A DNA stretch of 64,000 nt from a virus. The stretch is from the IMG/VR virus record IMGVR_UViG_3300037130_000236; one strand, given 5' to 3'. A model generated the notes under the pieces. It did no database searches, was not told the origin of the DNA, and saw nothing but the letters and a program-made list of their open reading frames with translations. The translations under genes and the position numbers were made by a program. This document shows positions 13,667 to 59,066 of this stretch, in pieces (positions within the stretch are counted from its first letter, which is position 1; every line of letters begins with the position of its first letter).

Positions 13667-15047
13667 TTGCTGTCCAAAATAGCAGGAAGCTCTTCACGCT
13701 TGCCTGACGCGCAAAGTGGGCTGATCCCCGTTACTCTGGAGTGGGTTCCTGAGCAGAACCACAGCCAAAGAGAGAAGGATCAGCCATGACTCAAGTATGC
13801 AGTGTCTACTCGCAGCTTTTGCAACTTTTTCCACGCGGACAGTTCGCGCAGGCTGTCAAGCAGCATCAAGCCGAGTTCAACGCCAAGGGGTTCACCTGCT
13901 GGGAACAGTTCGTGGCCATGCTGTTTTGCCAGGTGGCGCATATGAACTCGCTACGCGAAGTCTGCCTGGGTCTGGCCGGATGCGAATCGCCGCTGAAGCA
14001 TCTGGGCATCAGCGCCGCGCCCAAGAAATCGACCTTAGCGTATGCCAACGCCAATCGCCCTTGGGAACTCTACCAGTCGATTTTCATGCAGTTGCTGGGA
14101 AAGTGTCAGGCCGAGACGGCGACCCGCAGTAGCCGCAAGTTCCGCTTCAAGAACAAGCTGATGAGCCTGGATGGCAGCATCATCGAGTTGTCGGCCACGA
14201 TGTTCGATTGGGCCAAGTATCGCCAGCGCAAGGGCGCCATCAAATTGCATCTGTTGTTGGACCACGACGGCTACCTGCCCTCGTTCGCGGTAGTGACGGA
14301 CGGCAAATATAGCGAACTGAAAGTGGCGCGAGGCTTGCATCTGGAAGCGGGTACGATCCTGGCCATTGATCGCGGCTACAACGATTACGTCTGGTTCGGG
14401 CAATTGACGCGGGACGGGGTCTTCTTCGTCACACGCATGAAGACCAACACGGTCTACACGACGGTCGAGGTGTGCGCGGTTCCAGAAAAGGGCAACGTGC
14501 TCAGCGACCAGATTGTCTCTCTGCCTTCCCTGGATAAGGATGGCGAGGCGCCGGTCCTGTTCCGGCGCATTGAATACTGGAACGCGGACAAGCAGGAGAT
14601 TCTGGTGTTCTTCACCAATCTTCTGCACTTGGCGGCCTCGACAGTAGCCGCGATCTATAAGGACCGTTGGCAGGTGGAACTGTTTTTTAAGGCCCTGAAG
14701 CAAACAGCAAAAGTGAAGTCGTTCCTGGGCACCAGCGCCAATGCGGTCAAGACGCAGATCTGGACGGCGCTGATCGCAATGCTGATCCTGAAGTACCTGC
14801 AGATGAAGTCCAGCTTTGGCTGGTCGCTTTCCAATCTGGCGGCCCTGCTGCGCCAGCAACTGTTCATCTTCAGGGACTTGTGGGCGTGGCTCAACAATCC
14901 GCTGGAGGGACCGCCAGCCGCACGGCAACTGGCCGAGCAGTTACCCATGCCGCTCATGTGGTAGCCACGAGTTGGACAGCAGAAGAAATGCAAGCATCCA
15001 CTTGAGCCCGTAGCACAGAACTTACACGCCGGCGAATTGGACAGCAG
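13667..15047 (+). mobile_element. IS4-family insertion sequence
   Basis: Left IR TTGCTGTCCAA 13667-13677; right IR TTGGACAGCAG at 14972-14982 and again at 15037-15047; no target duplication recognised. Confidence 0.8.
13786..14964 (+). CDS. IS4-family DDE transposase
   Basis: FTCWEQFVAMLF N-terminus; LDGS, IDRGY, YKDRWQVELFFKALKQ (YREK-like signature). Confidence 0.95.
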   Translation: MTQVCSVYSQLLQLFPRGQFAQAVKQHQAEFNAKGFTCWEQFVAMLFCQVAHMNSLREVCLGLAGCESPLKHLGISAAPKKSTLAYANANRPWELYQSIFMQLLGKCQAETATRSSRKFRFKNKLMSLDGSIIELSATMFDWAKYRQRKGAIKLHLLLDHDGYLPSFAVVTDGKYSELKVARGLHLEAGTILAIDRGYNDYVWFGQLTRDGVFFVTRMKTNTVYTTVEVCAVPEKGNVLSDQIVSLPSLDKDGEAPVLFRRIEYWNADKQEILVFFTNLLHLAASTVAAIYKDRWQVELFFKALKQTAKVKSFLGTSANAVKTQIWTALIAMLILKYLQMKSSFGWSLSNLAALLRQQLFIFRDLWAWLNNPLEGPPAARQLAEQLPMPLMW

Positions 15048-15812: not shown

Positions 15813-17840
15813 TTAGAAGGTGATCTTGAGGGTACGGGTGAAGCTGCCCTTCACGCGGCACAATATATAGTTCCGCTGTGTGGATGAAAAGCCGATGCCG
15901 CTCAGTTGGCGATCTGACTCCTCGGTCTTCATCTTCGAGCCAACAACCTCGAACACCTTGCGATGCACGTTGAGGCTGTCGGTCAGGAACTCGTTGAAGA
16001 ACCCGCGGGCCTTGCCATCATTGAGGCAGCCGTCGAGCATGAAGAAGTAATGCTTGTTGCCGACGGTCTTCTCATCCCAGTAGTTGGGCGAGAGCATGAG
16101 AACGGACACTTTGTGGAAGGTCTGGGTTGGAATACCCCAGAGATTCTTGGCCGCCTGCGATGAAGGAAGCGACTTGACGATCTCCAATCCGCCCTTGTGG
16201 GTGTAATTGAATTCCGCCACGACCGCAGCAGTGTTGGCAGGAACAGCCTTCGGATGAGCAAACGTGCGAACGACGCCATCGAATTCGATTTCAACTTCGA
16301 ACCCAACGTCCACGGTCTCCCGCTTGTTGTAGTTGTAAACGAATAGCCTGTAAAGGCCCTCGCGCATAGTCCTACGATCGGGATATGTGATGTTCTCGAC
16401 CGCGCTTCGGCTACCGCCAGATCCCACATTCATGTCCACATCGAGTTCACCACCCGCTCTTGACCGCCGGTTGCTGAAGCAGATCTCTTCGCCATTGATT
16501 GTCGTGCGAGATGCTCCAGGCTCGATGAGATGCAGATCGAGATCGTCATAGTTGAACCAGGACAGCGAACAGCGAAGGTCGCCGTCTACGGCGCCGCCGG
16601 CACGCTTGACACGTTCCTTGATGGAATCAGCAAGTTCTCCTGCATAGGACCAGGAGAAGTTGTTCGGCCATTTGAACATGGTCTTGGCCGTCGGATCGAC
16701 GGGAGAGATCAAGCTGAGCAGGTTGCCGGCGTGACGGTTCTCGAACATCACTTCCAACGACTCTGCCTTGGGCAGCACGTTGGCAAGGAAGTCCTCGATG
16801 GACACCGTCTCGATTTTGTCCAGGTTGGGTACCTTCTCGGGAACTGCGCTGGCCAGACCGTCGAAGACATTCATGGCCTTCTTGGCCTTGCGGTCCGCGA
16901 AGAGAATGTTGTTGATGGTAATGTCTTCGATGGTGGCGTAGCGACGATCCAGAGCAGAGGTGAACCCCAGCTCCTCGATCGTGGTACGCGCCTTCTCGAT
17001 CATTCCCTTGGTGATCAGAGCAGTCGGCCGTTTGTAGTTGGTGGGTGCGACCTTCGACTCGTACGAAGCTACGGCGGCATCCATTTCCCGGCCTTCGGAC
17101 AAGTCTGTGAGCAGCGATCCGATGACGTTGCCACGTATCCTTGATACCGCAGCCGGAACAGCCTTGGCATGCAACCAGGCGAACAGATCCTGCGCTTCCA
17201 CGCTGCGCACCTTGGCGAACTCCACCTTCAGCTTGCGGAAGCTGGTCAGTTCGAAAGTGTGCTCCTCACCGCGATACAACGAGTTCTGGCTGATCAGCTC
17301 AAGAATAGTGTCGATCGATTCCAGTGTGATCTCCTTGAGACCACGGAGAAGCACATCCTTGGTACTTCGGAAGTCCGACAGTTGTGGACCGATGGCATCG
17401 CCACGGACAACACAGGTTGTTGGAAGCGTGATGAAGAAGTGCTCCCAGGCCAGAACTTCCTTTGATTCAAGTTGCTGAAGGTTCCCATCCGTCCCTGCAG
17501 TGCGTTCGGTGTGAAGGAAGATGTTGTCGATCGGAGACAACTTGACCAGGGCGGACAGCGCATCAACTACCGGCTGGTAGGGACTGCCGACACGAACATC
17601 CCAGAGGCTCACGAGCTGTCCGTCAATGATGGCGACTATACCGCCTACTGCACGGATGAAGCTCTTGCAGCACTGGCAGTCATGCTCAGTCCGCTGTTTG
17701 TAGAGTGGGTTCGAGCCCGCCGGGAAGCTGCTGAGATAGACATCCCACAGCTGATCCTTGTCGACTTGCACCCGGTATAGTTGATACCCCTTCATGACAT
17801 CGAACTGCAGGGCAACCGCCTTCTTTAAGACACTGAACAT
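15813..17840 (-). CDS. Large phage protein with YfaP/DUF2135-like domain
   Basis: HDCQCCKSF N-terminal Cys motif; LRCSLSWFNYDDLDLH...LDVDMN...VENI. Confidence 0.8.
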   Translation of the reverse strand: MFSVLKKAVALQFDVMKGYQLYRVQVDKDQLWDVYLSSFPAGSNPLYKQRTEHDCQCCKSFIRAVGGIVAIIDGQLVSLWDVRVGSPYQPVVDALSALVKLSPIDNIFLHTERTAGTDGNLQQLESKEVLAWEHFFITLPTTCVVRGDAIGPQLSDFRSTKDVLLRGLKEITLESIDTILELISQNSLYRGEEHTFELTSFRKLKVEFAKVRSVEAQDLFAWLHAKAVPAAVSRIRGNVIGSLLTDLSEGREMDAAVASYESKVAPTNYKRPTALITKGMIEKARTTIEELGFTSALDRRYATIEDITINNILFADRKAKKAMNVFDGLASAVPEKVPNLDKIETVSIEDFLANVLPKAESLEVMFENRHAGNLLSLISPVDPTAKTMFKWPNNFSWSYAGELADSIKERVKRAGGAVDGDLRCSLSWFNYDDLDLHLIEPGASRTTINGEEICFSNRRSRAGGELDVDMNVGSGGSRSAVENITYPDRRTMREGLYRLFVYNYNKRETVDVGFEVEIEFDGVVRTFAHPKAVPANTAAVVAEFNYTHKGGLEIVKSLPSSQAAKNLWGIPTQTFHKVSVLMLSPNYWDEKTVGNKHYFFMLDGCLNDGKARGFFNEFLTDSLNVHRKVFEVVGSKMKTEESDRQLSGIGFSSTQRNYILCRVKGSFTRTLKITF

Positions 17841-28095: not shown

Positions 28096-28135
28096 GGTAT
28101 TGACTGTTGGCATATCCATATATAGGTATTGACTG
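28096..28135. repeat. Direct repeat GGTATTGACTG x2 within a ~700 bp non-coding, hairpin-rich interval
   Basis: 28096-28106 and 28125-28135. Confidence 0.55.
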
Positions 28136-28314
28136 ACCCTGGGCTGAGCCCAATGAGGCAATCGATCCCATGTGTGGTTCCAACTTGCCGATTCCCAGGA
28201 CGAATCCTGGTCATCAGGATGGGCATGACCCATCAATGTCAGAATCGTTCCAGAGTGGAATGATCCTGACATTTCGGCCTTCAAGCAGGGCCGAACCGCC
28301 AAGTTGTTAATGGT

Positions 28315-31300
28315 TTAGAAGTCTGTGCTTTCGTCGAACTCGAAGTCCTCTGAAGCAATCTCTGCCACCAGGTTGGACTTGTAGTCCGAGTGCAGCTCAG
28401 GAGCTGAGTCATAGACGTGGATCACGCCCTTGGGCGACATCATGTAGCTGCCGTCCGGGATGGTTGGATCGGCTGTGCGGGACAGGAGCTTGTCATTGCT
28501 GCGGTGGTAGATATTGCCACCGAGAGCCTTGACTGCTACTGGCCTAACCAGCCGGCGCTTTGCATAGCCGTTGAGGTCGATGAATGCGACGCAACCGGTA
28601 AGGCCGAGATCCTCCTCGGCCGACAGGATGTCATCCAGGATGTAGTTCGGCACACCGTCACCGACGGATTGCGTGAACTTGTCCTCCCCAACGAGTGGGT
28701 CGGTGTTGCGGTTATAGACCGTGTTGAGCCAGTAAATTCCGAACTTGCGCCGAGTCTCCACAGACCATGGCCGCCCGGACACACTGAGAGTGGTGCCCGA
28801 TACGGAGAACTGGTTGGTGTAGAAATCAACTAGGCCTGGAGTGTGAACTTCCTCCATGCTGGTGACCTTGCCGGTGGCGTCCTTGACCAGGATGGTCTCG
28901 GTGAAGCCATTGGCAATACGGTCATAGACGTTGTCAGGCAGCACGCCGCCGTTGTCGGCCTTGGCTTCCTGGAACTGACGAATCCACCAGCTGCGAAGGT
29001 CTCTGACCATCGAGAGGATAGCTTCATCCTCCGGATAGGCATTGAGCAGCTTGGCTGCCAGTGGCCGCTTGATCATGTGTTCCACCTGACGGCTCTCTTC
29101 GAGCAACTGGTCACGACGCGTGTTCAGCAGATTGAGCGCCTTGCACAGCTTGGTTTCCACCAGAATGTAGTTGCCCATGTTCTTGCGATCACGGGGCATG
29201 CGGTTGGCGAAGGAGATCGGAAAGACCAATGTCTTCAGAGCTTCCTTAGCCTCAGCGAAGAGCGACATCACTGTCAGCTTGTCGCCTTTACGCATCTGGG
29301 TGTAATCGATGACCAGGTCCGAGTTGGACATGGCACGAGCACACATGAAGTCTGGCTTGGCGGCGTTGACAAGCGATGCCACATAGACAAACCAGTCCAG
29401 CGTAGGCTCATACTCGATCGGCACGATCTTCGCCAGTCCCTCAGGCAGCAGCTGAATCAGCTCATGCCTTTGCGGAGCGATGAAGTTGTCAGGCACGATG
29501 AACGTCTTGGCCTGCAGGCTCTCACCGATGGTGATCCGGTGTTCGCCAGACAACAGGGTGTCCAGCCAGCCGTTGTTGATGAAGGAACCCAGGGATTCCG
29601 AATACTCGGTGAACTCCCTGAGCTGCTGTGCGAAGCAGTTGAAGTTCCACTCATCGCCGATGCCCAGCCACTTCTCGCGGTTGGTCTTGGCGAATGCGGA
29701 TACCTCACGGACTTTGATGGTGAGTTTGGGTTGAACTGGATAGTCCATCGTCTGCCACTTGGCGATGAAGGCAGGGTCCTGGATGGCGAACAGATTGTCA
29801 TCCATATCCCCACCATTCAGCTTGCCCAGCAGATCGCCGGCGTTGGCGCCGAAGAAGCACCAGCCCTGTCCCTTGGACTCCAGGAGTTCAGGAACAAGGA
29901 TGTTGCAGACAAGAACCATCTCAGTTGAGTTGGTGTTGGGATTACGCCCAACGAGCACCGGGCCTTCCAGGAGATCCGGAATGCACACGGTAGGCAGCCC
30001 ATCCCGCTCGCCACCGAGAGTGTCGAGTGTGAAGTCGGGCATGCCGTTGGGCATCATGACCAGTGGATTGGGCCGAGCATAGACACGGATCGCACCCTTT
30101 AGTGGAATGCGGCCGCGGGTAATGTCCAGAGAATCCTGGAAGCCATGCTTGAAGATCCGCCGGTAGAGCACCGGCAGAGTCTTCGATTCATGCTGCAGCT
30201 TCATGGCACGCACCAGCGCCCATTCGGGCTTGGGCATATCCATGTCGCGGCGAGCAGCGTCCGACACATTCACCAGAGTGGCGAAGTAGTCAGTGATGGC
30301 ATCTTCGTCGTCGCCGAAGAGGATCTTGGCACGCTCGTCCATGACCTCAAGGCCATACCGTACGCAGAGGTCTTCTTCGAAGAACCCGGCATTGGTGATG
30401 GTCTGAAGATCGGTCATGAGTTCGTGCTTGCTGGTCTTCAACAGCAGCCCGATGTAGATGCGGTCGCCATGAAAGACGACCTCGTCCTTGGAGCCATAGA
30501 GATAGATGTCATAATCTGCCATCCTCTCGTTTGCTGCGTAAATACCTTTGCCGAGACCGAATGGTCCGACCAGGGTTGCAGCGCACCCGTCAAAGCCGGG
30601 TAAGTTGATGACGCCAGAGCCATCTAGGAAGCTGGTCTCCTGATCGTTGAGCAGCTTCATGTTGAAGTTGAGAATGGAGATGACTCTCCCATTCTTCAGC
30701 TTGGCCATGGTGACCTGGCCTGTCGGCACCGGATAGCTCGAGATGATCTCGGCTTCCAGCATGGACTGGTGAGCAGCCATGGTACGGCGCATCCGCTTGG
30801 GCGCCTTGGGATCAGAGGAGATGAACACTCCCAGATCCTTGAGGCGCTTGACGTTGGCCGAAGCTGACACCAGGACCATGGTCCCGGTGCCATTGACATC
30901 GGCATAGACGACGCGGAAGCGTTCGTCACCTTCAGTCCAGCCGTGACGGCAAAGGAACTTCGCCGTTTCAGCCATGTCCTTGCATCCATCCTTGCCGGAC
31001 GCTTCGAATGTGACGATGCCATACCTGGCACCTTCGGGCATCAGTGCATCGAGAACCTGCCGGGTCTCATGCTGCATGAAGTGCTCGTCCTTCTGATAGA
31101 GAACAGGCTTGCCGGGATACGGCCGGCGCACACGAGTGATGATCTCTACGTCCGTTGCGTCATAGAGAATGTGGAAAGCCATTCGGCTGTCGTGGTTCCA
31201 CAAGGGAACTTCGACATCAGTCGCTTCGCCGTCAGAGTAGATGAACTCCTCTGCCGTTTGCTCATCTTCGAGACGCAATGCCTTCACGTCTTCCTCCTTG

Positions 31301-31368
31301 AGATGATTGTGAATTGGGCTGTGGCTTAGAGCGATCAGTTCGCTCAACAGATTCTTGTCGTTAGACAT
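28315..31368 (-). CDS. Single-subunit two-barrel RNA polymerase, YonO/cellular-RdRP-like (~1017 aa)
   Basis: Ordered motifs K..KR, FLDGSGVI, GLGKG, TDLQT, GRIPLKG, VLVGRNP, GGDMDDNLFAIQDP; AAGGAG RBS before MSNDKN. Confidence 0.8.
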   Translation of the reverse strand: MSNDKNLLSELIALSHSPIHNHLKEEDVKALRLEDEQTAEEFIYSDGEATDVEVPLWNHDSRMAFHILYDATDVEIITRVRRPYPGKPVLYQKDEHFMQHETRQVLDALMPEGARYGIVTFEASGKDGCKDMAETAKFLCRHGWTEGDERFRVVYADVNGTGTMVLVSASANVKRLKDLGVFISSDPKAPKRMRRTMAAHQSMLEAEIISSYPVPTGQVTMAKLKNGRVISILNFNMKLLNDQETSFLDGSGVINLPGFDGCAATLVGPFGLGKGIYAANERMADYDIYLYGSKDEVVFHGDRIYIGLLLKTSKHELMTDLQTITNAGFFEEDLCVRYGLEVMDERAKILFGDDEDAITDYFATLVNVSDAARRDMDMPKPEWALVRAMKLQHESKTLPVLYRRIFKHGFQDSLDITRGRIPLKGAIRVYARPNPLVMMPNGMPDFTLDTLGGERDGLPTVCIPDLLEGPVLVGRNPNTNSTEMVLVCNILVPELLESKGQGWCFFGANAGDLLGKLNGGDMDDNLFAIQDPAFIAKWQTMDYPVQPKLTIKVREVSAFAKTNREKWLGIGDEWNFNCFAQQLREFTEYSESLGSFINNGWLDTLLSGEHRITIGESLQAKTFIVPDNFIAPQRHELIQLLPEGLAKIVPIEYEPTLDWFVYVASLVNAAKPDFMCARAMSNSDLVIDYTQMRKGDKLTVMSLFAEAKEALKTLVFPISFANRMPRDRKNMGNYILVETKLCKALNLLNTRRDQLLEESRQVEHMIKRPLAAKLLNAYPEDEAILSMVRDLRSWWIRQFQEAKADNGGVLPDNVYDRIANGFTETILVKDATGKVTSMEEVHTPGLVDFYTNQFSVSGTTLSVSGRPWSVETRRKFGIYWLNTVYNRNTDPLVGEDKFTQSVGDGVPNYILDDILSAEEDLGLTGCVAFIDLNGYAKRRLVRPVAVKALGGNIYHRSNDKLLSRTADPTIPDGSYMMSPKGVIHVYDSAPELHSDYKSNLVAEIASEDFEFDESTDF

Positions 31369-31502
31369 GGTGATTCTCCTTCCCCCTCCACGGGGTCGGT
31401 TGAGTACGAATGAGTTTTGCTGGGTCTTGTGCGCAGAAGCCGCGGGCATGGGCTTCCTGTTGCCAGTCAGTTCCCATGCCCTGTTTGCGTCGTTGAGTAG
31501 TC

Positions 31503-31775
31503 TTAGAGGGAGGCAGGCGTTGCGGCCGTCTTCTTGGCGAAGAGGCCAGTGAACCCAGTCCATGCCTGCTTGGCTGCCGGGATCGCACAGACCTGAGCGG
31601 TGCCAGCCGCACGGGCTGTCACATCGGTGGTGCGCTGCGTGGCATCGGCGGCATAGTGAATGCCTTTGGCAAGGTTGTCGCCGATGAAGTGAATGGCGAT
31701 GGAGCTGAATGCTCCGTTGACGATTTCGTTCAACATGGCACGCTGTTCAGGTGTGAGCTGTTTCTTCGTGGTCAT
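31503..31775 (-). CDS. Hypothetical protein
   Basis: AAGGAG RBS before MTTKK. Confidence 0.55.
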   Translation of the reverse strand: MTTKKQLTPEQRAMLNEIVNGAFSSIAIHFIGDNLAKGIHYAADATQRTTDVTARAAGTAQVCAIPAAKQAWTGFTGLFAKKTAATPASL

Positions 31776-31801
31776 TTCATTCTCCTTGAATGGCAGCAAG
31801 C

Positions 31802-31971
31802 GAATTAGGACCGGGTGGGCTAAAACCCAAATAGGCCAGCCTCCCTGTACTACTTGTTACCTGGTGTCTTCATCCCCATCACTTGCGGCGCCTCGCACGA
31901 AGCCCCATGAACGAGTCACATGACCAGTTGCTGCTCTGTTTATGAGTCGCTGAATTAGACCCGGGTGGGCT
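31802..31971. repeat. 20-bp direct repeats in divergent intergenic region
   Basis: GAATTAGGACCGGGTGGGCT 31802-31821 and GAATTAGACCCGGGTGGGCT 31952-31971. Confidence 0.65.
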
Positions 31972-32045
31972 GTCAGATAAATGTGGCAAATCTCTTACGC
32001 GAATCCTGAAACCTGCTCAGAACACAAGCAAAAAAGGCCCCACAC

Positions 32046-32525
32046 GTGGGCCTTTGGTACATCGAGGGTCGGAACCATGCTGGGAACATGGTCAAACCCA
32101 TCGATCCTTGGCCTGCACCAGGCCCGAACTCGCACATTTTCTTCAAGGTCACGGCAGTGAACCCCAACGACTACGGGATTCCTCCCACGACGTTCATCGT
32201 CGAGGCGCTCAATGAGGAGGTGGCCGTCGAGTGCATCAAGCGCGCGATCTGGGCTGGCATCCTCTTGCCACACAGCTACAATGGCGCTCTCAATCCATGG
32301 CCCGCATATTTCCAGAGCAATGCCCTGAGGTATCTGCTCGATGGGATGTTCGTTGCCGAGGAACTGGAGACTCTGCCGACGCTGCGGTTCTTTCCCGATC
32401 CGTGCATTCGGGATGAGTGGCTTCGCTACCAGCTCTCCTGGATGGCTCGTCTTGTCGAGGATATCCAGAAGTGGTGGGATGCCATGCTGGCACGGACCTT
32501 CTTCACTTCCTGGTTTGGAAGGTGA
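32046..32525 (+). CDS. Hypothetical protein
   Basis: First gene of rightward block; start uncertain. Confidence 0.6.
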   Translation: MGLWYIEGRNHAGNMVKPIDPWPAPGPNSHIFFKVTAVNPNDYGIPPTTFIVEALNEEVAVECIKRAIWAGILLPHSYNGALNPWPAYFQSNALRYLLDGMFVAEELETLPTLRFFPDPCIRDEWLRYQLSWMARLVEDIQKWWDAMLARTFFTSWFGR

Positions 32526-36786: not shown

Positions 36787-37743
36787 CTACGCCGCCGGAG
36801 CAGCGGGCAGGGCCGTCGCCACCCGGTTCTGCCCCTCACGCTTTGCCTTGTATAAAGCCCTGTCGGCTGCCAGGAGCAGGTCTGGAGGTGTCGTGATCGT
36901 TCCATCCGGCTGGGGCATTGTAGTGGCAACACCGATGCTTGCGGTCACCGACACCCAATCACCGGAATTCTTATTCGAGCGAAAGCGTAAGGTCTGGATG
37001 GCAGAGTGCACTTTTTCAGCGGCCCTGAACGCACCGAGCCCCTCTGTAGCGGGAAGGATGATTGCCATCTCATCCCCACCCCAGCGGCAGACAATATCTG
37101 AAGCGCGCACGGAGTCGCTGATGGCGGAAGCAACCGTGCACAGACAAACATCCCCGACAGGATGCCCGTACCGGTCATTGAACGGCTTGAAATGATCTAT
37201 ATCGAGTAGCAGCAGGGACAGTTGCGATTCCTCGCGGACCGTTCGTTTCCATTCCCTTCTAAGGCTTTGGTCGAAAGCGCGACGATTCCAGAGCCCGGTG
37301 AGAGCGTCCGTCATGGCCAGGGCGGACAGTTTCTCCTCCAGCACCTTGCGGCCGGTGATGTCCCGCATGGACAAAACGTAGACGCGGGGCTCGCCGTTCA
37401 CCGGATCGCGCACACACCGGGTATTGATGCTGGTCCAAACCGGGGTTTGGTCCTTCTTCAACAGCCGCACTCTCACGTGGGAATAGGCAGCGCCATCCTC
37501 GGCGCTGCCCGTGGCAATATCTTCGAGGACCGCAAGGTCCTCGGAAAATACGAACTCGTCGAAATCTTTGCCGATCATCTCGCCGGGGTCCCAGTTGAGA
37601 GTGTCGAGAGCAGAAGGGGACACGTAGCGAATCGCATGATCCGCGCCAACGCTGCACAGAATATCGGCGCAGTTCTCTGCCAGGAACTTGTAATCGATCT
37701 CGACCGCGCCGCTCGGCTCGTGTTGGTCTTCAGGAGGAATCAA
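36787..37743 (-). CDS. PAS-GGDEF diguanylate cyclase
   Basis: PAS (YVSPS..WDPGEMIGK...RDIT), TDALTGLWNRR, DIDHFKPFNDRYGHPVGD, RASD I-site, RWGGDEM, TASIG, ADRALYKAK; GAGGAG RBS + TTG. Confidence 0.9.
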   Translation of the reverse strand: MIPPEDQHEPSGAVEIDYKFLAENCADILCSVGADHAIRYVSPSALDTLNWDPGEMIGKDFDEFVFSEDLAVLEDIATGSAEDGAAYSHVRVRLLKKDQTPVWTSINTRCVRDPVNGEPRVYVLSMRDITGRKVLEEKLSALAMTDALTGLWNRRAFDQSLRREWKRTVREESQLSLLLLDIDHFKPFNDRYGHPVGDVCLCTVASAISDSVRASDIVCRWGGDEMAIILPATEGLGAFRAAEKVHSAIQTLRFRSNKNSGDWVSVTASIGVATTMPQPDGTITTPPDLLLAADRALYKAKREGQNRVATALPAAPAA

Positions 37744-38300
37744 CTCAACTCCTCGAACGAGGCCAGGGAAAAACGTTTGCGGTGCGCCCCCGCAAACGGC
37801 CCTTAAACCCGTGGTCGGGGAGTTGGAAAGCCGATACGACACGGCTCCTGTGACCTTTAGCCGCGAAGCCTGGACATACGTCACAGGCTCCCCGACCCAA
37901 AGGCAAGGGAGATCACACGTCTTGCGACGTGCCTTTGTCGTATTCGGGGTTTCCACACCCCAGGGCGGCGCGTGACCGCCCCAAAGTCATCATAACTTTG
38001 TTTTGCAGTCTTTTGGTAGAGTAAGAATCTGTTTTTCTCCAACCTGCCCCGGAATAGCCGAGAGCTTTTTGCCCGGCGAGGTTGAGCCACGCTGCCATCA
38101 TTCGGGGCAGGTAGGCACGCAATAAAGCATCGGCTTTCTAAGCCGGGCCGACTTCTTGCCTCATTGGGTTCATGAACCCCATAATCTTCTCACTGGCACC
38201 AACAGCTCGTAGCGCTCACTGAGAGATCTATCGATCTTCCGTTACAGGTTCCGGGCGTCTGGTCTGCACCTCGGAAGCAGACCCACTATCCAAACCCCTG

Positions 38301-39659: not shown

Positions 39660-40142
39660 GTGCCCCTCGATCAAACCGGCTATCGCAACACCTTCCCGCT
39701 CACCAAAGTCCTTGACCGCCTCTTTCTGGGCGGCTTCAAGGACGCTGAAGACCTCAGGTCCGGCAACCCACACAACATCACCCACATCTGCAACTGCACT
39801 ACTGAACCGCTCACGATTCCGTCCAGATGCGTCACCAGCATTATCCAGATGGACCAGCTCGACGGCCACGACTGGGATGTCCAGAAGCTCTACTCGGCTG
39901 TCGATTGGATCCGTCGCGCGCTGCTCGGCGGAGGCACCGTCCTGGCCCATTGCCATGCTGGCATCAGCCGGTCTCCGGTGCTGGTTGCGACCTATCTCTA
40001 CACCTGCGGCTTCGACTTCGACCGCGCGCTCGACCGCATCAAGGCCCAGCGCCCGATCGTGCAGCCTGCACCTGTCGTCCTGGTCAGTGCCAAGCGGGCC
40101 TTTGGTATCTCCCCGCTTGCCATCCACACTGCAGGCAGATGA
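39660..40142 (+). CDS. Dual-specificity protein phosphatase
   Basis: LFLGG, ITHICNC, catalytic HCHAGISRS (HCxxGxxRS). Confidence 0.9.
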   Translation: MPLDQTGYRNTFPLTKVLDRLFLGGFKDAEDLRSGNPHNITHICNCTTEPLTIPSRCVTSIIQMDQLDGHDWDVQKLYSAVDWIRRALLGGGTVLAHCHAGISRSPVLVATYLYTCGFDFDRALDRIKAQRPIVQPAPVVLVSAKRAFGISPLAIHTAGR

Positions 40143-47457: not shown

Positions 47458-47910
47458 ATGGGATCTCCCGTCACCATTTCCAACCCGGCTCCCGGCTGTT
47501 CGTACCTGAACTACCCGCGTGCTGTGTTGAATACACCCCATCCTGTCTACGGCGGGAACCTTGCTGGCTTCGGCGTGGGGGATCTGCCCACCCAGTTCGA
47601 GTCAGGCCTTCCCGTGTTCACGGCCATCACGGCAAATGCAACTTCGGGGCTGATCGACGTTGCCGCCAACGCAATCGAGTTGGATGCGACCTTCAGCGAT
47701 CTGCACACCAGCTGCACGATCACGGTCTTCCTCGCGGACGGCGAAACAGTCGTCGCCACCTGGAACAACGTGTCGACTCTCAACAGCGGCAACCTGTATG
47801 CCGGCTTTGCCGAGCAGCGCAAGCTCATCGGCGGTGGTTCCCTGGTCTTTCAGGTCTCGAACTACGACGGCGCCGGCTCCATCACCCTCTCGGTTCGCCG
47901 CACCGGCTAA
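47458..47910 (+). CDS. Putative beta-rich structural protein
   Basis: 150 aa, low charge, late-region position. Confidence 0.65.
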   Translation: MGSPVTISNPAPGCSYLNYPRAVLNTPHPVYGGNLAGFGVGDLPTQFESGLPVFTAITANATSGLIDVAANAIELDATFSDLHTSCTITVFLADGETVVATWNNVSTLNSGNLYAGFAEQRKLIGGGSLVFQVSNYDGAGSITLSVRRTG

Positions 47911-48001
47911 GAGTTGGTGTTTACCCAGAGTAGGCACCCTACAAAGGCTTCGTCCGCTGAGCCAGCCTGGCAAATCAGCGGATCTCTCCAAGGAATCCCA
48001 C

Positions 48002-50110
48002 TTGAGTACCGGATTCGTTCCGTTGGCGGATCTGGTTGCCGGCCTCACGCCGGATGATCAGACCTTCTTTGCCAACACCATCAAACGAGATCACGAAGCT
48101 GCAGGCACCGACCAGGAGGGAATCCTGCGCCGGATCTTGGGCTGTAAGCAGTGCCAGGACTGTGTCGCAGGCTACAAGCAGAAGCATCCTGGTAAAGCAT
48201 TCGGAATCAAGTGCTTCGGTGTCTATGACACTCCCGATTACGAGGCGATGCAGGCTGACCTGCACGCCCGTGGTGATGACATGGAGCTGGACGAGATCCG
48301 TGAGATCTATGATCCGGCGTTCTGGTCCACCAGGTACATGGTTCTGCGCGACGATCAGGGCAACATCGAGCCTTGCGCGCCGCGCGTATACCAGGAAGAG
48401 GCGCTCCGCTGCACTTCCCCGCGCAAGGTCGACAGGTGGGGCCGTGGCCTGGGCAAGACCCTCTGCGGCGTCATCGAAGAACTCCACTTCATCAGCATCA
48501 ACAAGAACACCGAAGTCATGGTGGTGGCGCCTTCCCAGGCGCAAGCCCAGCTGTGGTGGGATGAGATCGTCTTCCAGATCGAGAACTCGCCGGCGCTCGG
48601 CGGCAACGACTTCCTGATCTCGAAGAAGCAGCAACCTTATTACTACATGCGATTCGGCAACGGATCGGTCATCAAGATCTTCACGGCCGGATCGAAGTCC
48701 GGCAAGGGCGCAGATTCCGTCCGTAGCCAATCCCCGCGGCGTATCCGGCTGGAGGAGCAGGACTACCTGGCGGACAAGGATTACCAGGCCATCATGCCGC
48801 TGATGCGCCGGTTCAAGAACATCACCTTCCACGGCTCCTCGACCCCAACCGGCCTGCGCGGGATGTTCTGGCAGATGTGCAACAAGCTGCCGGACTACAA
48901 AGAGTTCTTCCACCCGATCATGGATCACCCGAACTGGGGGACCGATCAGCTGAACGAGGAAGTCTGCCTGGCCGAGGCCCAGACCCTCGAGAAGTATCGT
49001 CACGAATGGCTGGCCGAGTTCGGCGACCCAACCGCCGGCGTGTTCAAGTCTGCCTTCGTTGACTGGGCCATGAAGCCCTACAGCCTCAAGACTCTCATCT
49101 ACGACGCAAACAAGCGTCATGTGATGGGAATCGACTGGAACGGCAAGGGCACCGGCACCCGGATTGTGGTCACCCAATACGACCCCACCACCCGCAAGCG
49201 GCGAGTGGTTCACCACGAGGCGATCGACGACGACAAGGCAACGACCAAGAAGTCCTTCAACAGGATCGTGGAGCTGAACAAGCTCTGGCATTGCGACTAT
49301 GTGTACGTCGATGCCGGCTTCGGCTTTGTTCAGGACGAACTCATCAAGGACATCGGCGTTCAGGCCGGCACATTTGATTCGGATACCGCGAAGCTGAAGT
49401 ACATCAACGTCATCGACTTCGGCGCCAAGCTGGAGACCAACGCTCTTGTTCCCAACCGGGACCCGGACTCGAAGTACCTGCCCAACCCCAAGGACGACAT
49501 TCTCAAACGGCGCACCAAGCCGTTCATGGTCGAGGGCGTGGTCATGGCCTTCGAGATGGAGCTGGTGGAGGTTTCGCGCGAGTATGCACTGCTCGAGGAA
49601 CAGCTTCGTGGCTTCCGGGTCAAGACCTGGACCAAGGGCGGAGCTGCCGACACCTACTCGACCGATGCCGACTCAGGCGATCACGATCTCGATGCTTTCA
49701 TGTTGTCGATGCTGGGAATCGAGCTGAACTACGGTCTCTGGCACACCAAGGAAACCGTCAGGCGTTTGGTACAAATCGCCCATGTGTCAGGCTGGGGATT
49801 GCCGTCCACTGTAATTAGCCAGCAGACGGCGTCGCCTGTCCAGACGCCAGGGGCGCCGGCCCCGGCTGCCACCGAGAGGATGCGTGAACTCAAACGCGAG
49901 ACCTCCGGTGTTCCTGCGCGAACCAAGCCAGAAAGCAACCTGCAGGAGCAGTACCGTTTGCTTCACATGGCGAGGCAGAGCTACACCGTGGTGCCTGTCA
50001 ACTCACCTGGGTCCGCCGGCAATGGTCGCGTTCCTTCCCGCACCAGCTTCTTTCAGAATTCAACCCGGCCCGGATTTGGCAGTGCCGGTCGTCGTTTTGG
50101 TGGTGGTTAA
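48002..50110 (+). CDS. terL: Terminase large subunit
   Basis: RWGRGLGKT (Walker A), IRLEEQDY (Walker B-like), GSSTPTG, GIDWN, VDAGFG, DHDLDA; AAGGA RBS + TTG. Confidence 0.9.
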   Translation: MSTGFVPLADLVAGLTPDDQTFFANTIKRDHEAAGTDQEGILRRILGCKQCQDCVAGYKQKHPGKAFGIKCFGVYDTPDYEAMQADLHARGDDMELDEIREIYDPAFWSTRYMVLRDDQGNIEPCAPRVYQEEALRCTSPRKVDRWGRGLGKTLCGVIEELHFISINKNTEVMVVAPSQAQAQLWWDEIVFQIENSPALGGNDFLISKKQQPYYYMRFGNGSVIKIFTAGSKSGKGADSVRSQSPRRIRLEEQDYLADKDYQAIMPLMRRFKNITFHGSSTPTGLRGMFWQMCNKLPDYKEFFHPIMDHPNWGTDQLNEEVCLAEAQTLEKYRHEWLAEFGDPTAGVFKSAFVDWAMKPYSLKTLIYDANKRHVMGIDWNGKGTGTRIVVTQYDPTTRKRRVVHHEAIDDDKATTKKSFNRIVELNKLWHCDYVYVDAGFGFVQDELIKDIGVQAGTFDSDTAKLKYINVIDFGAKLETNALVPNRDPDSKYLPNPKDDILKRRTKPFMVEGVVMAFEMELVEVSREYALLEEQLRGFRVKTWTKGGAADTYSTDADSGDHDLDAFMLSMLGIELNYGLWHTKETVRRLVQIAHVSGWGLPSTVISQQTASPVQTPGAPAPAATERMRELKRETSGVPARTKPESNLQEQYRLLHMARQSYTVVPVNSPGSAGNGRVPSRTSFFQNSTRPGFGSAGRRFGGG

Positions 50111-50529: not shown

Positions 50530-52169
50530 TGGCCTTCGAGTCGATCCAGTTCAAGTACACCCCTCCGCCCACCGTCTCGGCGTCGATTCCCGCCGCACAA
50601 GCTGCTGTGCCTGTGAGTCTGGCAACGGGTGGCAGCCTGGCGAATTCCGGGAATGCCACGGCGAGCGCATCGGCCGCCGGAAAGCTGATCGCCAGACTGG
50701 CAGACCTGCTGGACACCAATCAGTACCTGCAGCAGGTGATCCTTGCGATGAGCACGGGGCTGGGCATTGAGTTCGATCCTTCCGTGGATCCGGAGACCGC
50801 GCGGGCACTGCAAACGATCTATTCAAACCTGCCGGTGCCGACCTCGCTTACCGTCAGTATGTACAACCGGATGCTCGATGCCAAAATGACGGCATTGCAG
50901 ATCGAATCAGGTCTGGGAACCGGCACGGCCTACGAGACGAATCCGTTTCAGGCGTCGGCCGTCACTCAAATCAACCAGACCATCGAAAGCGGCCTGGTCA
51001 ACAGCGGACAATCCCAGTACCAGACCGCTCTGCTTCTGGGGCCGTTGAAAGGGGACGCGGTCCTCTTCAACAACATGACAGCCCAGCTGTCACAGTATCC
51101 GGTCATTGCATCGCCGGGAACGCCTTCGATCGCCACCAACAATCCGAATCAGATCTCGATTCTGGGGCAGGACGTATCGCCGGCGCTGGCGAGCACAATG
51201 AACAGCTCGCTCGACTCCTTCCAAAGCTCCTATGCGTCGGTCTTCCAACTGACTGCGGGTGTAGGAGTCGTCGCACAGGACGTCAATAATGTCCTGAACC
51301 AGTTCTTCCTGGAACCTCCCACCAATCTGGTGAGGATGATCCCGATGTTGCAGGCACTTCAAGGCTTCTCACAAGGGCCTCGTCTGGACTCGATCGTCAA
51401 CGGGATGACTGGCACGGTGTTCGTTCAACTCATCGCTGAAGCGGCCGGGATGGTCATCGTGGCCGACCGTTTCATGCAGACCGCGGTGCAGCCCCTCAAA
51501 GGCAGCACATCCAATATCGGCCAGATGGTCTCGCAGATCCAGGCGGCCGCAGCCATGGCCAACGTGGTGGTCAACGGGGCAAGACAGAGCTTCGTGAACA
51601 CCACCGGCGGACTCAAGGGTTGTTCGCTGGCCTACAACAGCGGCCTGCCAACAGCGCCGGTCAGTTCGTCTGCGCTGGTGCCGGCGAGCACCTTCCAGGT
51701 TCCCGGGGCGGGGCCAATGACTCCCGGCCTGATGACGTTGGCTACCCACCTCGATTGGGCAAACACGACAGTCAGCAACCGGGTCATGGTGCTTCAGGAA
51801 TCGTTCCAGAAGCTGTTGAATCGCCGGACTGGCGACATGAACACCCAGATGGACATCATCGCCAGCACTCAAGCCCTGAACACACTGACCCAACTGGCCA
51901 AGGCCGTGATGACTTACAACAGCAGCCAGCCTGCGGTAGGCGCCACAAACTCTGTCACTCAGACCGCGGCCGTGAGCCAGATCCTCAGCGGGATGAGTTC
52001 GACGACAGGCACTTCCTTCGTTGTCACCAACGGCCAGATGCAGGCCGTTTCTCCCACAGTCCCCGCACCGCCCAGCAACGTGCAAACGGTTCTGACCAAG
52101 GGCGGCGTGAACCTGATCGTCGCATCCTCGTCGACTGTACAAGCACCCACCATCGGAGCAGTGAGCTAA
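50529..52169 (+). CDS. Putative structural protein (S/T/Q/N-rich, 546 aa)
   Basis: TAATG coupling; between terL and portal. Confidence 0.7.
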   Translation: MAFESIQFKYTPPPTVSASIPAAQAAVPVSLATGGSLANSGNATASASAAGKLIARLADLLDTNQYLQQVILAMSTGLGIEFDPSVDPETARALQTIYSNLPVPTSLTVSMYNRMLDAKMTALQIESGLGTGTAYETNPFQASAVTQINQTIESGLVNSGQSQYQTALLLGPLKGDAVLFNNMTAQLSQYPVIASPGTPSIATNNPNQISILGQDVSPALASTMNSSLDSFQSSYASVFQLTAGVGVVAQDVNNVLNQFFLEPPTNLVRMIPMLQALQGFSQGPRLDSIVNGMTGTVFVQLIAEAAGMVIVADRFMQTAVQPLKGSTSNIGQMVSQIQAAAAMANVVVNGARQSFVNTTGGLKGCSLAYNSGLPTAPVSSSALVPASTFQVPGAGPMTPGLMTLATHLDWANTTVSNRVMVLQESFQKLLNRRTGDMNTQMDIIASTQALNTLTQLAKAVMTYNSSQPAVGATNSVTQTAAVSQILSGMSSTTGTSFVVTNGQMQAVSPTVPAPPSNVQTVLTKGGVNLIVASSSTVQAPTIGAVS

Positions 52170-54385
52170 TGCCACGCACACCAGACACCACTCTTCAGGA
52201 CAATGCAGCGGCCCGGCAGGAGCGGCTCATGGCCTTTGTTGACGGCACGTCCACCAAAGCCAAGCCCGGCAAAGCCGCGGTGATCCGCCGGACGATCGCC
52301 GGCCAGGTCATCGAGCCCAACATCAAAGGGCTGGGGCGCAGGACTGCCTCGTATACCGATAAAGGCTTTCAGCCTGTTGAACGGTCGACTGGTGAACGCA
52401 ACATCAGCGACAAGCTGATGGAAGGCATGAAGATCGAGGACGCCGGCAAGATGCTGAACGGCGACCTGAACAAGATCAAGCTCGACAAGGCAGCTGATTA
52501 CATCGGCACCTACTATATGTGGAACGGCATCCTGATGCCGGAGTATGACATGCGCGAACCGCACGCCATCTCTGACACCGAGGTCTACGTCAAGCAGGCC
52601 GTGGCCCGCAAGCTGGCGCTCGCCGCGCGCGCCGGCTACGAAATCATGAGCGACCGCGAGGAAGACGCTGATTACATCCAGACTCGCATCAATGCGTTTG
52701 AATTCGTCACCGAACGCAGCTTCGAGAGCTTCATCAAGGGCGTTCTGCGCAACCTGTTCCTGTGTTCCAACTGCTTCCTGCTCAAGATCCGCAAGGAAGA
52801 CGCTTCCCCGGTGAGCAAGAAGGAGGGCGGCAGAGTCCCAGTCGCTGCCTATGTGATCGTCCCCGCCCACACCATGCACCCTTATCTGGAGAAGGGGAAG
52901 ATCAGCAAGTGGCGCCGCATCTTCGACCACGGCATTCCGTGGATCGATTACCCGGTTGAGGACATCATCCACCTGAAGTGGGACGTCAAGCCAGGCCACA
53001 TCTTCGGAACGCCGCGCACCATCGCCGTCCGGGATGACATCTTCGCCCTGCGCCGGCTTGAAGAGAACATCGAACTCCTGTTCATCAACCACCTGTTCCC
53101 GTTGTTTCACGTTCAGGTAGGCAACGAGAAGGCTCCCTGCACCTACGGTCCGGGCGGTGAGTCCGAGATCGATATGGTGCGCTTCCAGATCGAGAACATG
53201 CCCAAGGAGGGCGTGTTCGTAACCGACGAGCGCGTCACCGTCACCGCCGTTGGCGCCAACGGCAAGTCTCTCGACTTCAAGGCCCTGGTGGAGCACTTCA
53301 AGTCCCGGGTCTACATCGGCCTGGGCATGAGCGCCATCGATATGGGCGAAGGCGCCGACGCCACCCGCGCCACAGCCGACAACATCTCGCAGAACTTGAA
53401 GGATTCAATCAAGGCCGACCTCGACGAGCTGGCCGATCAGATCCGGATGCTCATCTTCAAGGAATGGTTCCAGGAAGCCAACTACTCGACATCCGTGCAG
53501 AAGGGCGTGGCGCGCACCAAGCTGGCATTCCACGAACTCGATCTCGACAATCGGATCAAGGAAGAGACGCATGTGATGGCTCTCTTCAATTCCCACCTGC
53601 TCACCGAGACGGAAGCCCGCAAGCGAATGAACCTCAAGCCGATGAGCAAGACGGAGCAGAACGATACTCACTTCGCTCTCCATGTGCTTCGCCTCGAGCG
53701 CGAGATCCAGAAGTACAAAACCGCATCGGCCATCGAGATCGGCCAACAGGATGTGACGAACCAGAAGGCGTTGGCCGGAACCCAGATGAAGCTGATGGAA
53801 GCCCAGGCCAAGCTGTCCGAGGTCAAGGCCGGCCACGAACAACAGAGTCTTGAAGCACAGGCGAAACACCTGCCTGTCATTGCCAAGGCGAAGGTCGCCG
53901 TGGCCAATGCCAGCTCACGCCGGACCAGCAAGGGTACCGGCGCCGGTCACCCGCGCGGAGGCACGGCCAAGAAGACAACCCAGACCGCTGCGGCAACCGC
54001 CAATAAGATGCGCCCGACCAACCAGCATGGATCGAAGCTGGGCCCAGGCAAGAACAGTGACAGCCTCATGAGCGAAATCTATGAAGGCTTGGTGCAAGGT
54101 CGTGACCGACTGATTGCCGATGGTCTCAATGTGGATAAGAACTGGCGCAAAGCAAGCGGTCAGATCATCGATGAGATCGTTGCACGACTCAACCAGCGCG
54201 AAATCACCGATTCAGTTGGTGATTCCTATACTAGACAGGAACGAGCCGCCGGACTGACTTCATTGAAGTCCGTGATTGCTGAAACTTCTGATCCTGAGCT
54301 TCTTTCCGTGCTTCTTCGAGCGGAATTGGAAGACGAGGTAGATGATGCCGAACTTGAATATGCCATTGCCGGTCGTGCAGCTTAA
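52169..54385 (+). CDS. Portal protein
   Basis: DIIHLKW...IFGTP...DDIFALRRLEENI portal-like segment; position; start trimmed to TAATG overlap. Confidence 0.8.
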   Translation: MPRTPDTTLQDNAAARQERLMAFVDGTSTKAKPGKAAVIRRTIAGQVIEPNIKGLGRRTASYTDKGFQPVERSTGERNISDKLMEGMKIEDAGKMLNGDLNKIKLDKAADYIGTYYMWNGILMPEYDMREPHAISDTEVYVKQAVARKLALAARAGYEIMSDREEDADYIQTRINAFEFVTERSFESFIKGVLRNLFLCSNCFLLKIRKEDASPVSKKEGGRVPVAAYVIVPAHTMHPYLEKGKISKWRRIFDHGIPWIDYPVEDIIHLKWDVKPGHIFGTPRTIAVRDDIFALRRLEENIELLFINHLFPLFHVQVGNEKAPCTYGPGGESEIDMVRFQIENMPKEGVFVTDERVTVTAVGANGKSLDFKALVEHFKSRVYIGLGMSAIDMGEGADATRATADNISQNLKDSIKADLDELADQIRMLIFKEWFQEANYSTSVQKGVARTKLAFHELDLDNRIKEETHVMALFNSHLLTETEARKRMNLKPMSKTEQNDTHFALHVLRLEREIQKYKTASAIEIGQQDVTNQKALAGTQMKLMEAQAKLSEVKAGHEQQSLEAQAKHLPVIAKAKVAVANASSRRTSKGTGAGHPRGGTAKKTTQTAAATANKMRPTNQHGSKLGPGKNSDSLMSEIYEGLVQGRDRLIADGLNVDKNWRKASGQIIDEIVARLNQREITDSVGDSYTRQERAAGLTSLKSVIAETSDPELLSVLLRAELEDEVDDAELEYAIAGRAA
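54225..54234 (+). promoter_or_regulatory. CCTATACTAG candidate late promoter, copy 4
   Basis: Inside portal 3' end, upstream of protease-capsid operon. Confidence 0.55.
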
Positions 54386-58865: not shown

Positions 58866-59066
58866 ATGCCGCAGATCGTGATCACCCATGGGCAAGCGTA
58901 TGTCAAGGGCGACGGTCTGCGGTGCATGGCAAAACGCTCCGATGGCACAGGCCGCGTCTGCGACAAGCTTGTGGTCAAGAAGAACCCAGCAGGTGAGATC
59001 GCCGGAGCATTCCAGTGCCCCGATCGCCGGTGTCGCCAGCATATCCAAGTCGAGACCAGACGATAA
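58866..59066 (+). CDS. Small Zn-finger protein, Mu Com-like pattern
   Basis: RC...CDKLV...FQCP..RC..IQV. Confidence 0.6.
   Translation: MPQIVITHGQAYVKGDGLRCMAKRSDGTGRVCDKLVVKKNPAGEIAGAFQCPDRRCRQHIQVETRR

Follow-up and report, generated by a model that had tools for sequence, protein, structure and literature searches.

The aspartate triad DxDxD, usually DxDGD, has been treated as the sole invariant sequence feature of two-barrel polymerases and has been used as a filter in searches for them (PMC2919709; PMC10770324); it is called invariant in the first of these sources, and the description of Supplementary Data 4 of the second gives [RK]xPx{20,100}DxDxD as the screen for new two-barrel polymerases. 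The locus described here raises the question of whether a protein that keeps the three aspartates in a shorter loop belongs with these enzymes, and what it might do for the phage that carries it. The gene lies in a 64,000-nucleotide stretch of viral DNA (IMG/VR record IMGVR_UViG_3300037130_000236, hereafter the window), and an earlier note, made from the sequence alone, had read its product as a divergent YonO-like single-subunit RNA polymerase with a compressed catalytic loop. The two-barrel polymerase fold is already known; what appears to be new, judged from the alignments, is a DxDD loop variant that departs from the signature called invariant.

The gene, its catalytic loop and conserved motifs

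The longest reading frame at this position extends from 28315 to 31563 on the minus strand (ORF listing and translation). Within it the gene occupies 28315..31368 (minus strand) and encodes 1,017 aa, in agreement with the earlier note; ATG 31368 is likely the true start, since a Shine-Dalgarno sequence, AGGAG (31376..31380, minus strand, read from the sequence), stands 7 nt upstream and the equivalent Met is the first residue in 15 homologs. This AGGAG is invariant across five related prophages. The segment singled out previously, GGDMDDNLFAIQDP, corresponds exactly to residues 519–532 (29773–29814).

Conservation was examined by aligning 88 full-length relatives, which share 17–79% identity; D521, D523, D524, K191, G250, K274, P477, G594 and D688 are invariant among them. 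The shortened metal-binding loop D521-M-D523-D524 is encoded at 29797..29808 (minus strand); the position aligned with it reads DxDD in every full-length representative, for the most part within G[GA]DxDD, and DxDGD occurs in none of the full-length family members listed. Since the Asp triad and other residues are invariant in all 88 relatives, the loop is not a chance match. The ordered barrel motifs that had been proposed are also found: the first-barrel acidic residue and Lys-Gly, D249-G250 and K274-G275 (30544..30624, minus strand; conservation and alignment), are followed by the second-barrel RxP segment R475-N-P477-N-T-N-S-T-E483 (29920..29946, minus strand) and the loop. Residue 249 is Asp in 73 and Glu in 11 of the 88 sequences, G275 is kept in 87 and R475 in 86. 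D249 and K274 occupy the places of the first-barrel acidic residue (QDE-1 D709, Rpb2 D837) and lysine (QDE-1 K743), and R475 and P477 sit 46 residues ahead of D521, within the 40–50 residues that define the RxP element of the superfamily.

Alignment with known polymerases places D249-G250 on the DG of QDE-1 and of YonO, the RxP segment on RSPAHFPSD (QDE-1) and RSPHLFREH (YonO), and the loop on GGDYDGD (QDE-1), GGDLDGD (RDR2) and DNDGD (YonO). The Gly is the unmatched residue in all three loop alignments, being treated as an insertion by HMMER in QDE-1 and RDR2 and facing a gap in hhalign in YonO. For this reason a one-residue deletion that keeps the three Asp, as the earlier note had suggested, is favoured over the ungapped reading DxDxN, which is not a conserved pattern because position 525 varies among Ser, Asn, Arg, Ala and Thr in the 88-relative alignment. 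The protein does not carry DxDxD as such; the three Asp are retained with their spacing one residue off. A literature search found no characterised two-barrel enzyme with DxDD.

One canonical residue is absent. No conserved basic residue was found in the 88 relatives 5–8 positions before K274, where QDE-1 R738, YonO R266 and Rpb2 K979 have their equivalents; position 263 is Arg or Lys in 47 of the 88 and Ala in the window protein. K191, R195 and K294 show little or no variation and may stand in for the missing first-barrel residue.

Fold and family relations

The AF2 model of the 1,017-aa protein (pLDDT 80.2, pTM 0.70) has plant RDR2 and Neurospora QDE-1 as its top Foldseek matches in the PDB (E ~1e-13, probability 1.0); gp62 and gp64, from the Thermus phages P74-26 and P23-45 respectively, come next. 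The VIA comparison gives Z of 15–17 for RDR2 (16.9 over 607 residues), 14.0 for QDE-1 (644 residues), 12.8 for P74-26 gp62, 12.6 for P23-45 gp64 and 9.6–9.9 for gp96, and an exhaustive Foldseek-free structure search of 48,161 chains returned Z of at least 8 only for RDR2, QDE-1, gp62, gp64 and gp96-type polymerases. The global alignments with RDR2, QDE-1, gp62 and gp64 (Z 12.6–16.9) run over residues ~57–980, so that the model aligns across both barrels of two-barrel polymerases, as the polymerase reading of the earlier note demands. Isolated DPBB domains match residues 422–532 (Z ~8); the first barrel is recognised solely from the global alignments together with the DG and KG motifs. In the ESM Atlas and BFVD, the structural neighbours are phage and bacterial 'RdRP'-type proteins.

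Similarity in sequence is fainter and emerges mainly from profiles. The Pfam RdRP family (PF05183) matches the window protein in the loop region only, at 14.5 bits (E 0.014) and below the gathering cut-off of 23.8, and it matches six of 48 relatives at E <= 0.01 (best 1.5e-10), while the family profile itself recovers QDE-1 (E 3.8e-4) and RDR2 (E 5.6e-4). With a five-member YonO family, hhalign gives a probability of 96.1% (E 2.8e-9, 441 columns); a 15-sequence alignment had no match to YonO alone, and the relation is seen only with broader profiles on both sides. No match was found by tblastn in 50,697 phage records, in PHROGs, or in PDB sequences with the single protein as query, and there is no pairwise similarity to YonO.

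Of the three proteins named for comparison in the earlier note, QDE-1 is thus a strong match, the YonO family is reached at the profile level, and crAss phi14:2 gp66 (6VR4) is matched with a VIA Z of 7.1 over 549 residues. On the model and the profile matches taken together, the DxDD family is one of single-chain two-barrel polymerase homologs. The YonO-like label stands in part: the protein is related to the YonO and QDE-1 types, but it has neither the detectable similarity nor the DNDGD loop of a YonO-family member, and its sequence makes it a sister family of YonO instead. The family comprises 16 close homologs and 192 representative clusters; it carries no annotation, the window protein being below the Pfam threshold, PHROGs having no entry for it, and the name being 'hypothetical' wherever a source name was seen.

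Carrier phages and the region upstream

The carrier is a large provirus, ~180–214 kb, of Acidobacteriaceae (soil and peat Acidobacteria), and related records are IMG/VR proviruses of 124–214 kb and prophages in Acidobacteriaceae MAGs; comparisons of the window's genome drew on five related phage records (G001–G005). The window also encodes terminase, portal, protease and major head genes. The polymerase gene belongs to a leftward block, otherwise made up of small unknown genes, that runs opposite to the head and packaging module. The family profile matched one of 401 sampled Acidobacteriota genomes, from which it follows that the gene is sporadic, prophage-borne and outside the host core. To our knowledge, Acidobacteria, which are abundant in soil and peat, have almost no studied phages.

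A tail-module protein of ~1,650–1,750 aa co-occurs with the polymerase in four of these records (G001, G003, G004 and G005), even in a phage whose polymerase is only 41% identical. Its motifs R621-H-P623 and D657-A-D659-G-D661 (RHP...DADGD) are invariant, and no relation by sequence was found to PDB sequences, Pfam, the DxDD family or P23-45 gp96, hhalign included. The motif and the position of the gene suggest that it may be a second, virion-borne polymerase.

Directly upstream of the polymerase gene, in the same operon, lies a 90-aa ORF (31503..31775, minus strand) with 57 homolog clusters at 63–99% identity and no Pfam or PHROG family. The 134-nt leader between the two (31369..31502, minus strand) is conserved: it shares ~90% of its DNA sequence with prophages in which the polymerase has only ~49% identity. 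A hairpin with one compensatory pair is predicted in it, and CCTCCCTC, at the stop of the small ORF, is predicted to be able to pair with the polymerase Shine-Dalgarno sequence; in both cases there is too little variation for a test of pairing.

Some 30 nt before the 90-aa ORF there is a conserved non-coding block, ACCAGGTAA..AGTAGTAC ... GCCCACCCGGTCCTAATT (31803..31885, minus strand), a possible promoter or operator through which the polymerase operon would be controlled. The 3' half is repeated at 31953–31969, so that the window has two copies where 0.02 would be expected. In G002–G005 the block occurs upstream of the polymerase operon only, save for one match with two mismatches in G004 that is probably due to chance, and it is kept in loci whose polymerase is 41–51% identical; in the phage at 41%, the first ORF after the block has no detectable relation to the 90-aa ORF. 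RNAalifold found no supported structure in the block, and an Rfam search around the polymerase gene gave nothing above chance-level matches. Further upstream, a terminator-like hairpin and T-run (32033..32055, minus strand), a consensus match only, would close the preceding leftward unit.

A repeated promoter motif was sought in the window as direct repeats, over-represented 8–10-mers and AT-rich islands, and none was found; comparison of all pairs at a minimum of 12 of 14 positions in ~20 kb of presumed intergenic DNA likewise gave no motif, in a search that would miss motifs of 4–8 nt and that was built on crude gene calls. A sigma-70 scan of the window stayed at background level.

Proposed role and comparison with known systems

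This large temperate phage of Acidobacteriaceae probably makes, in the DxDD protein, an active single-chain two-barrel RNA polymerase that depends on Mg, and most likely one that serves as its own non-virion DNA-dependent transcriptase. Catalysis would take place between the two double-psi beta-barrels, where two metal ions would be held by D521, D523 and D524 of the second barrel and D249 of the first, as the alignments suggest; K274 would be a ligand of the incoming NTP and of the RNA 3' end, probably together with K191, R195 and K294, with R475-x-P477 lining the hybrid site. Deletion of the Gly leaves the loop one residue short of DxDGD. Right-hand polymerases chelate metal with adjacent aspartates in their GDD and YxDD motifs, and by analogy the adjacent pair at this turn may still be able to do so. 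The fold, the homology, the unchanging residues and the phage setting come from the data; we infer activity, a DNA template and a relay with a virion-borne second polymerase as in P23-45, and DNA is an assumption, since the closest solved structures belong to enzymes that also copy RNA. The role in late transcription proposed in the earlier note found no support. Against an active polymerase count the absence of the basic residue five positions before Lys-Gly and of a repeated promoter motif in the window.

A bolder version of this account, tentative and in our view rather doubtful, is that DxDD marks an old, separate lineage of working phage RNA polymerases missed by motif screens; in these Acidobacteria jumbo prophages it would act as the second stage of a relay after a tail-delivered polymerase with the canonical DxDGD, which would read the single-copy conserved upstream block. 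Among prokaryotic proteins, the same lineage might be the nearest relative of the RNAi polymerases of eukaryotes, and it may copy RNA as they do, an idea that arises because the DxDD fold is nearer to QDE-1 and RDR2 than any solved phage enzyme is.

Somewhat less likely still is an RNA-templated or dual-template enzyme like QDE-1, whose substrates, to be copied or extended, would be phage or host RNAs such as the putative tRNA-like RNAs ~25 kb away. The top structural neighbours, RDR2 and QDE-1, do use RNA templates, and both activities are described for QDE-1 in PMC9508822; yet the characterised phage members of the clade, YonO (PMC5467207), P23-45 gp64 and gp96 (PMC10770324) and crAss gp66 (bioRxiv 2020.03.07.982082), are DNA-dependent, no sequence feature marks the choice of template, and the structured RNAs do not adjoin the polymerase gene. 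It is improbable that catalysis has been lost and that the polymerase fold now serves nucleic-acid binding or a structural or regulatory role, with the broken DxDxD as the trace of lost activity. The missing literal motif and canonical basic residue would fit such a loss, but dead enzymes lose catalytic residues, and here 88 very divergent sequences keep, with few or no exceptions, the three Asp, RxP, Lys-Gly and the acidic residue of the first barrel. A two-barrel DNA polymerase or primase with PolD-like chemistry, serving phage replication, is very improbable and was rejected, since no PolD chain is among the best 50 matches of either VIA search, even though PMC7708050 and PMC6355029 describe a two-barrel core in archaeal PolD and a change of loop could go with a change of substrate.

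With this family, the large temperate phages of Acidobacteria gain a candidate enzyme for transcription. The 192 clusters that have the three Asp without the spacer imply that the active-site loop tolerates another geometry and that DxDxD screens under-count phage polymerases, and the family would be a natural system in which to examine how metals A and B are held.

Among known systems, the eukaryotic cellular RdRPs QDE-1 and RDR2 (PF05183; 2J7N, 7Y7P-T, 7W82, 7EU1) are the best structural match, with ~600–645 residues over both barrels at Z 14–17 and the same order DG ... KG ... RxP ... GGDxD(G)D ... DP; the spacings G-G-D1 and D3+7 = D-P are identical in QDE-1. The window protein differs from them in its DxDD loop, the missing basic residue five positions before Lys-Gly, ~12% identity and its phage origin. 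YonO of SPbeta, the single-chain DNA-dependent RNA polymerase of a temperate Bacillus phage (PMC5467207), is similar in size and nearly co-linear in numbering (D249-G250, RxP, loop, IGxxxN helix), and both genes are carried by large temperate phages; YonO, however, has a DNDGD loop and R266, and its gene lies upstream of structural genes, whereas the DxDD gene is the first in a run of small unknown genes. The crAss-like phi14:2 gp66 (6VR4) falls in the same clade as the window protein, that of the phage and RNAi polymerases, and its DFDID loop provides the known precedent for a fourth residue other than Gly. That loop still has five residues, however, and gp66 is a protein of 2,180 aa carried in the virion.

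The layout here resembles that of the Thermus phage P23-45, in which gp64 (like P74-26 gp62) is a non-virion RNA polymerase and gp96 a virion RNA polymerase fused to the tape measure (PMC10770324; 8F72, 8F5M, 8H2M). At 616 aa and with DYDGD, gp64 is unlike the window protein, and the giant protein here has no detectable sequence relation to gp96. Both layouts nevertheless combine a leftward small-gene block that includes a polymerase with a rightward terminase-portal-head-tail module, both include a giant tail-module protein with an RxP...DxDGD motif, and gp64, which acts early, has a gene position in the leftward block that resembles that of the DxDD gene.

The polymerase gene and its catalytic loop

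The polymerase is encoded by the single long ORF of its region, which extends over 28315–31563 (-) according to ORF listing and translation. ATG 31368 is likely the true start of the gene, as the earlier note had it, since AGGAG lies 7 nt upstream and the equivalent Met is the first residue in 15 of 15 aligned homologs. The product from this start comprises 1,017 aa, and the catalytic segment GGDMDDNLFAIQDP, previously placed at 29773–29814, lies exactly there and corresponds to residues 519–532. The protein matches the Pfam RdRP family (PF05183) below threshold and over the loop region only (14.5 bits, cut-off 23.8) and has no match in PHROGs, PDB sequences or 50,697 phage records; its relatives are called "hypothetical" or "uncharacterized" wherever the source gives a name. 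Neighbours in the ESM Atlas are Acidobacteriota clusters without names and one phage cluster (PF05183 in 39% of members). The C-terminal tail (28315–28350, -) is acidic and aromatic (EDFEFDESTDF); about half of the DxDD family, the nearer members, share it, and distant members lack it. It recalls the acidic tails with which SSB-type proteins dock onto partner proteins.

A word-indexed search returned 16 relatives of the polymerase (33–99% identity), and a profile recovered 192 of 1.84 billion representatives at E ≤ 1e-3, 87 of them at E ≤ 1e-30. DxDD occurs at the aligned position in every full-length representative, mostly as G[GA]DxDD and usually followed by hydrophobic residues and then D-P, while DxDGD was found in none of them. 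Across an alignment of 88 sequences with identity down to 17%, K191, G250, K274, P477, D521, D523, D524, G594 and D688 are invariant and the residues conserved at ≥ 90% include R195, G275, K294, D320, Q322, R420, R475, G519, Y543, P544, N598, I687 and R723; D249 is slightly under 90% (D in 73 sequences, E in 11). Residue 525, where an ungapped DxDxD reading would put the third Asp, is variable, which speaks against that reading and makes D-x-D-D the conserved triad. The Gly of DxDGD is left unmatched in all alignments to the eukaryotic RdRPs QDE-1 and RDR2 and to YonO, the SPbeta RNAP. Both results bear out the proposal of a one-residue deletion that keeps three Asp. Two spacings are unchanged relative to QDE-1: GG to the first Asp, and the last Asp to D-P (+7).

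Homology, predicted fold and probable activity

A profile of 48 family members matches QDE-1 (E 3.8e-4) and RDR2 (E 5.6e-4) in the PDB, and 6 of the 48 match Pfam RdRP themselves at E ≤ 0.01, the strongest at 1.5e-10. The YonO family profile (built from phage-record sequences of YonO and four of its relatives; YonO loop DNDGD), whose invariants over the five sequences include D249-G250, R266...K271-G272, R492-x-P494 and D535-x-D537-G-D539, aligns to the DxDD profile in hhalign with 96.1% probability (E 2.8e-9, 441 columns) and almost co-linear numbering. Six of the eight canonical residues have a conserved counterpart at the canonical position in the DxDD family, and the third Asp is displaced by one residue. 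Compared with the YonO family, the 88-sequence alignment has no counterpart of the basic residue that stands five positions ahead of Lys-Gly; candidates to take its place are K191, to which an invariant Lys corresponds in the YonO family, R195 and K294.

An AlphaFold2 model built on a 15-sequence alignment (pLDDT 80.2, pTM 0.70; 82–90 around the loop) was compared with known structures. Foldseek against the PDB placed RDR2 and QDE-1 at the top (E ~1e-13, probability 1.0), next the non-virion RNAPs P74-26 gp62 and P23-45 gp64, and further down, with weak E-values, multisubunit beta' chains, the P23-45 virion RNAP gp96 and the crAss-like phage virion RNAP gp66. VIA re-alignment gave Z 16.9 for RDR2 (607 residues), 14.0 for QDE-1 (644 residues), 12.8 for gp62, 12.6 for gp64 and 9.6 for gp96. 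An exhaustive, Foldseek-independent search of 48,161 representative chains yielded Z ≥ 8 for five only (RDR2, QDE-1, gp62 and two gp96 crystals) and Z 7.1 over 549 residues for crAss gp66. Isolated DPBB domains align to residues 422–532 at Z ~8 (VIA), and the first barrel is supported through global alignments and motifs. The predicted structure therefore does not show the lack of two DPBB domains that would have refuted the earlier note. Fold matches and profile homology thus support the earlier identification of a two-barrel polymerase, and the DxDD enzyme is a variant of an already known two-barrel enzyme kind.

Shape searches of BFVD and the ESM Atlas brought up proteins of uncultured phages, in some cases named RNA-dependent RNA polymerase, along with P23-45 gp64 and eukaryotic RdRPs. 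The enzyme is probably an active DNA-dependent RNAP of the non-virion type, acting early or middle; an RNA-templated or dual-template enzyme is considered unlikely. Activity is favoured mainly because every catalytic-type residue is invariant over very deep divergence, and the same invariance speaks against an inactive polymerase fold, for which there is little room. A DNA polymerase or primase is the least probable reading and is hardly to be expected.

The RNAPs studied before crAss gp66 all have Gly at the fourth loop position, which is Ile or Val in gp66 (Drobysheva et al., bioRxiv 2020.03.07.982082). According to the supplement description, Chaban et al. (PMC10770324) screened viral genomes with [RK]xPx{20,100}DxDxD, a pattern that the DxDD family fails. 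No two-barrel enzyme with a DxDD loop was found described in the literature searched, the coverage of which is incomplete, and this absence is not proof.

The upstream region of the polymerase operon

The ~560 nt preceding the polymerase start (31369–31925, -) show ~90% DNA identity to prophages with ~49% polymerase protein identity, a contrast which means that recombination had its boundary at the start codon or else that the region is under strong constraint. Within it are a 90-aa ORF of no known family (31775–31503, -; 57 homolog clusters, 63–99% identity), the last codons of which could pair with the polymerase SD, and a 134-nt leader with a predicted hairpin. A conserved non-coding block ending GCCCACCCGGTCCTAATT lies ~30 nt before the small ORF and is retained even in relatives with 41–51% polymerase identity; it is a candidate promoter or operator of the polymerase operon, and no supported RNA structure was found for it. 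Part of the block is duplicated within the window: the motif GCCCACCCGG(G/T)(T/C)CTAATTC (17–19 nt) occurs at 31803–31819 and 31953–31969 (-), two copies at a distance of 150 nt against an expectation of 0.02. In related phage genomes motif and block occur only upstream of the polymerase operon, apart from one additional 2-mismatch match in the phage record G004 that is probably due to chance. The sequence to the left of the motif looks like a tRNA T-loop (GGTTCGAGCC in the phage with 41% polymerase identity); no tRNA or Rfam family was called there.

The phage genome and a second polymerase candidate

The window is phage DNA and encodes a terminase large subunit (47660–50110), a portal (51620–54385), a protein with a weak head-maturation-protease match (54601–56994), a major head protein (59015–60469) and, elsewhere, an Endonuclease_NS-family nuclease, a DNA-ligase OB domain protein, a SpoU methylase and GroES. 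A 675-aa protein (15813–17840, -) aligns with PHROG 1735 (unknown function) over the full length (E 1e-267) and is therefore a widespread phage protein without annotation. The DDE transposase (DUF4372 and DDE_Tnp_1) at 13786–14964 (+), on the opposite strand inside a leftward phage gene block, probably marks the insertion of an IS element into the prophage. A PAS-GGDEF diguanylate cyclase (36787–37956, -) and a dual-specificity phosphatase (39660–40142, +), possibly host-signalling morons, sit between the polymerase block and the packaging genes. The ~1-kb stretch directly downstream of the polymerase gene, in which no ORF was found to be conserved in relatives, contains GGTATTGACTG twice, 22 nt apart, flanking an AT-rich core (28107–28150, +).

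Near-identical polymerase copies occur in IMG/VR proviruses of 124–178 kb, and the 41%-identity relative in a 214-kb provirus estimated to be 99% complete. All genome matches are Acidobacteriaceae or Terracidiphilus MAGs from bog, fen and soil; the DxDD family was found in 1 of 401 Acidobacteriota genomes sampled. The nearest Acidobacteriaceae MAG compared, G001, has two copies (G001:C4:3184994-3188045 and G001:C4:484604-486250), one 98% identical and split near residue 135–138 (frameshift or long-read indel), the second 77% identical and covering residues 1–540 only; together they suggest that this genome contains two related prophages.

A giant protein of ~1,650–1,750 aa carrying RHPINA...DADGD, found in G001 by peptide motif, is encoded in the tail module outside the window, ~47 kb to the right (L007:14342-17767 in G001; also L026 and L027), downstream of a weak, sub-threshold tail-sheath domain match. 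In G001 it is divided between two ORFs, of 590 aa and 1,141 aa, and it accompanies the DxDD gene in four related records (G001 and three viral records, one of them the 41%-identity phage); R621, P623, D657, D659, G660 and D661 are kept in its eight homologs. The giant protein is a candidate virion RNA polymerase, and a relay in which it would precede the DxDD enzyme is purely hypothetical, since sequence comparisons by several methods gave no link between the giant protein and known RNAPs.

The polymerase gene occupies the second place in a leftward unit of small genes of no assigned function, which is syntenic in relatives with 41–53% polymerase identity and opposes the rightward structural module. 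P23-45 gp64 has the same arrangement, a leftward small-gene unit opposite a rightward structural module; its loop is DYDGD, unlike the DxDD of the window polymerase.
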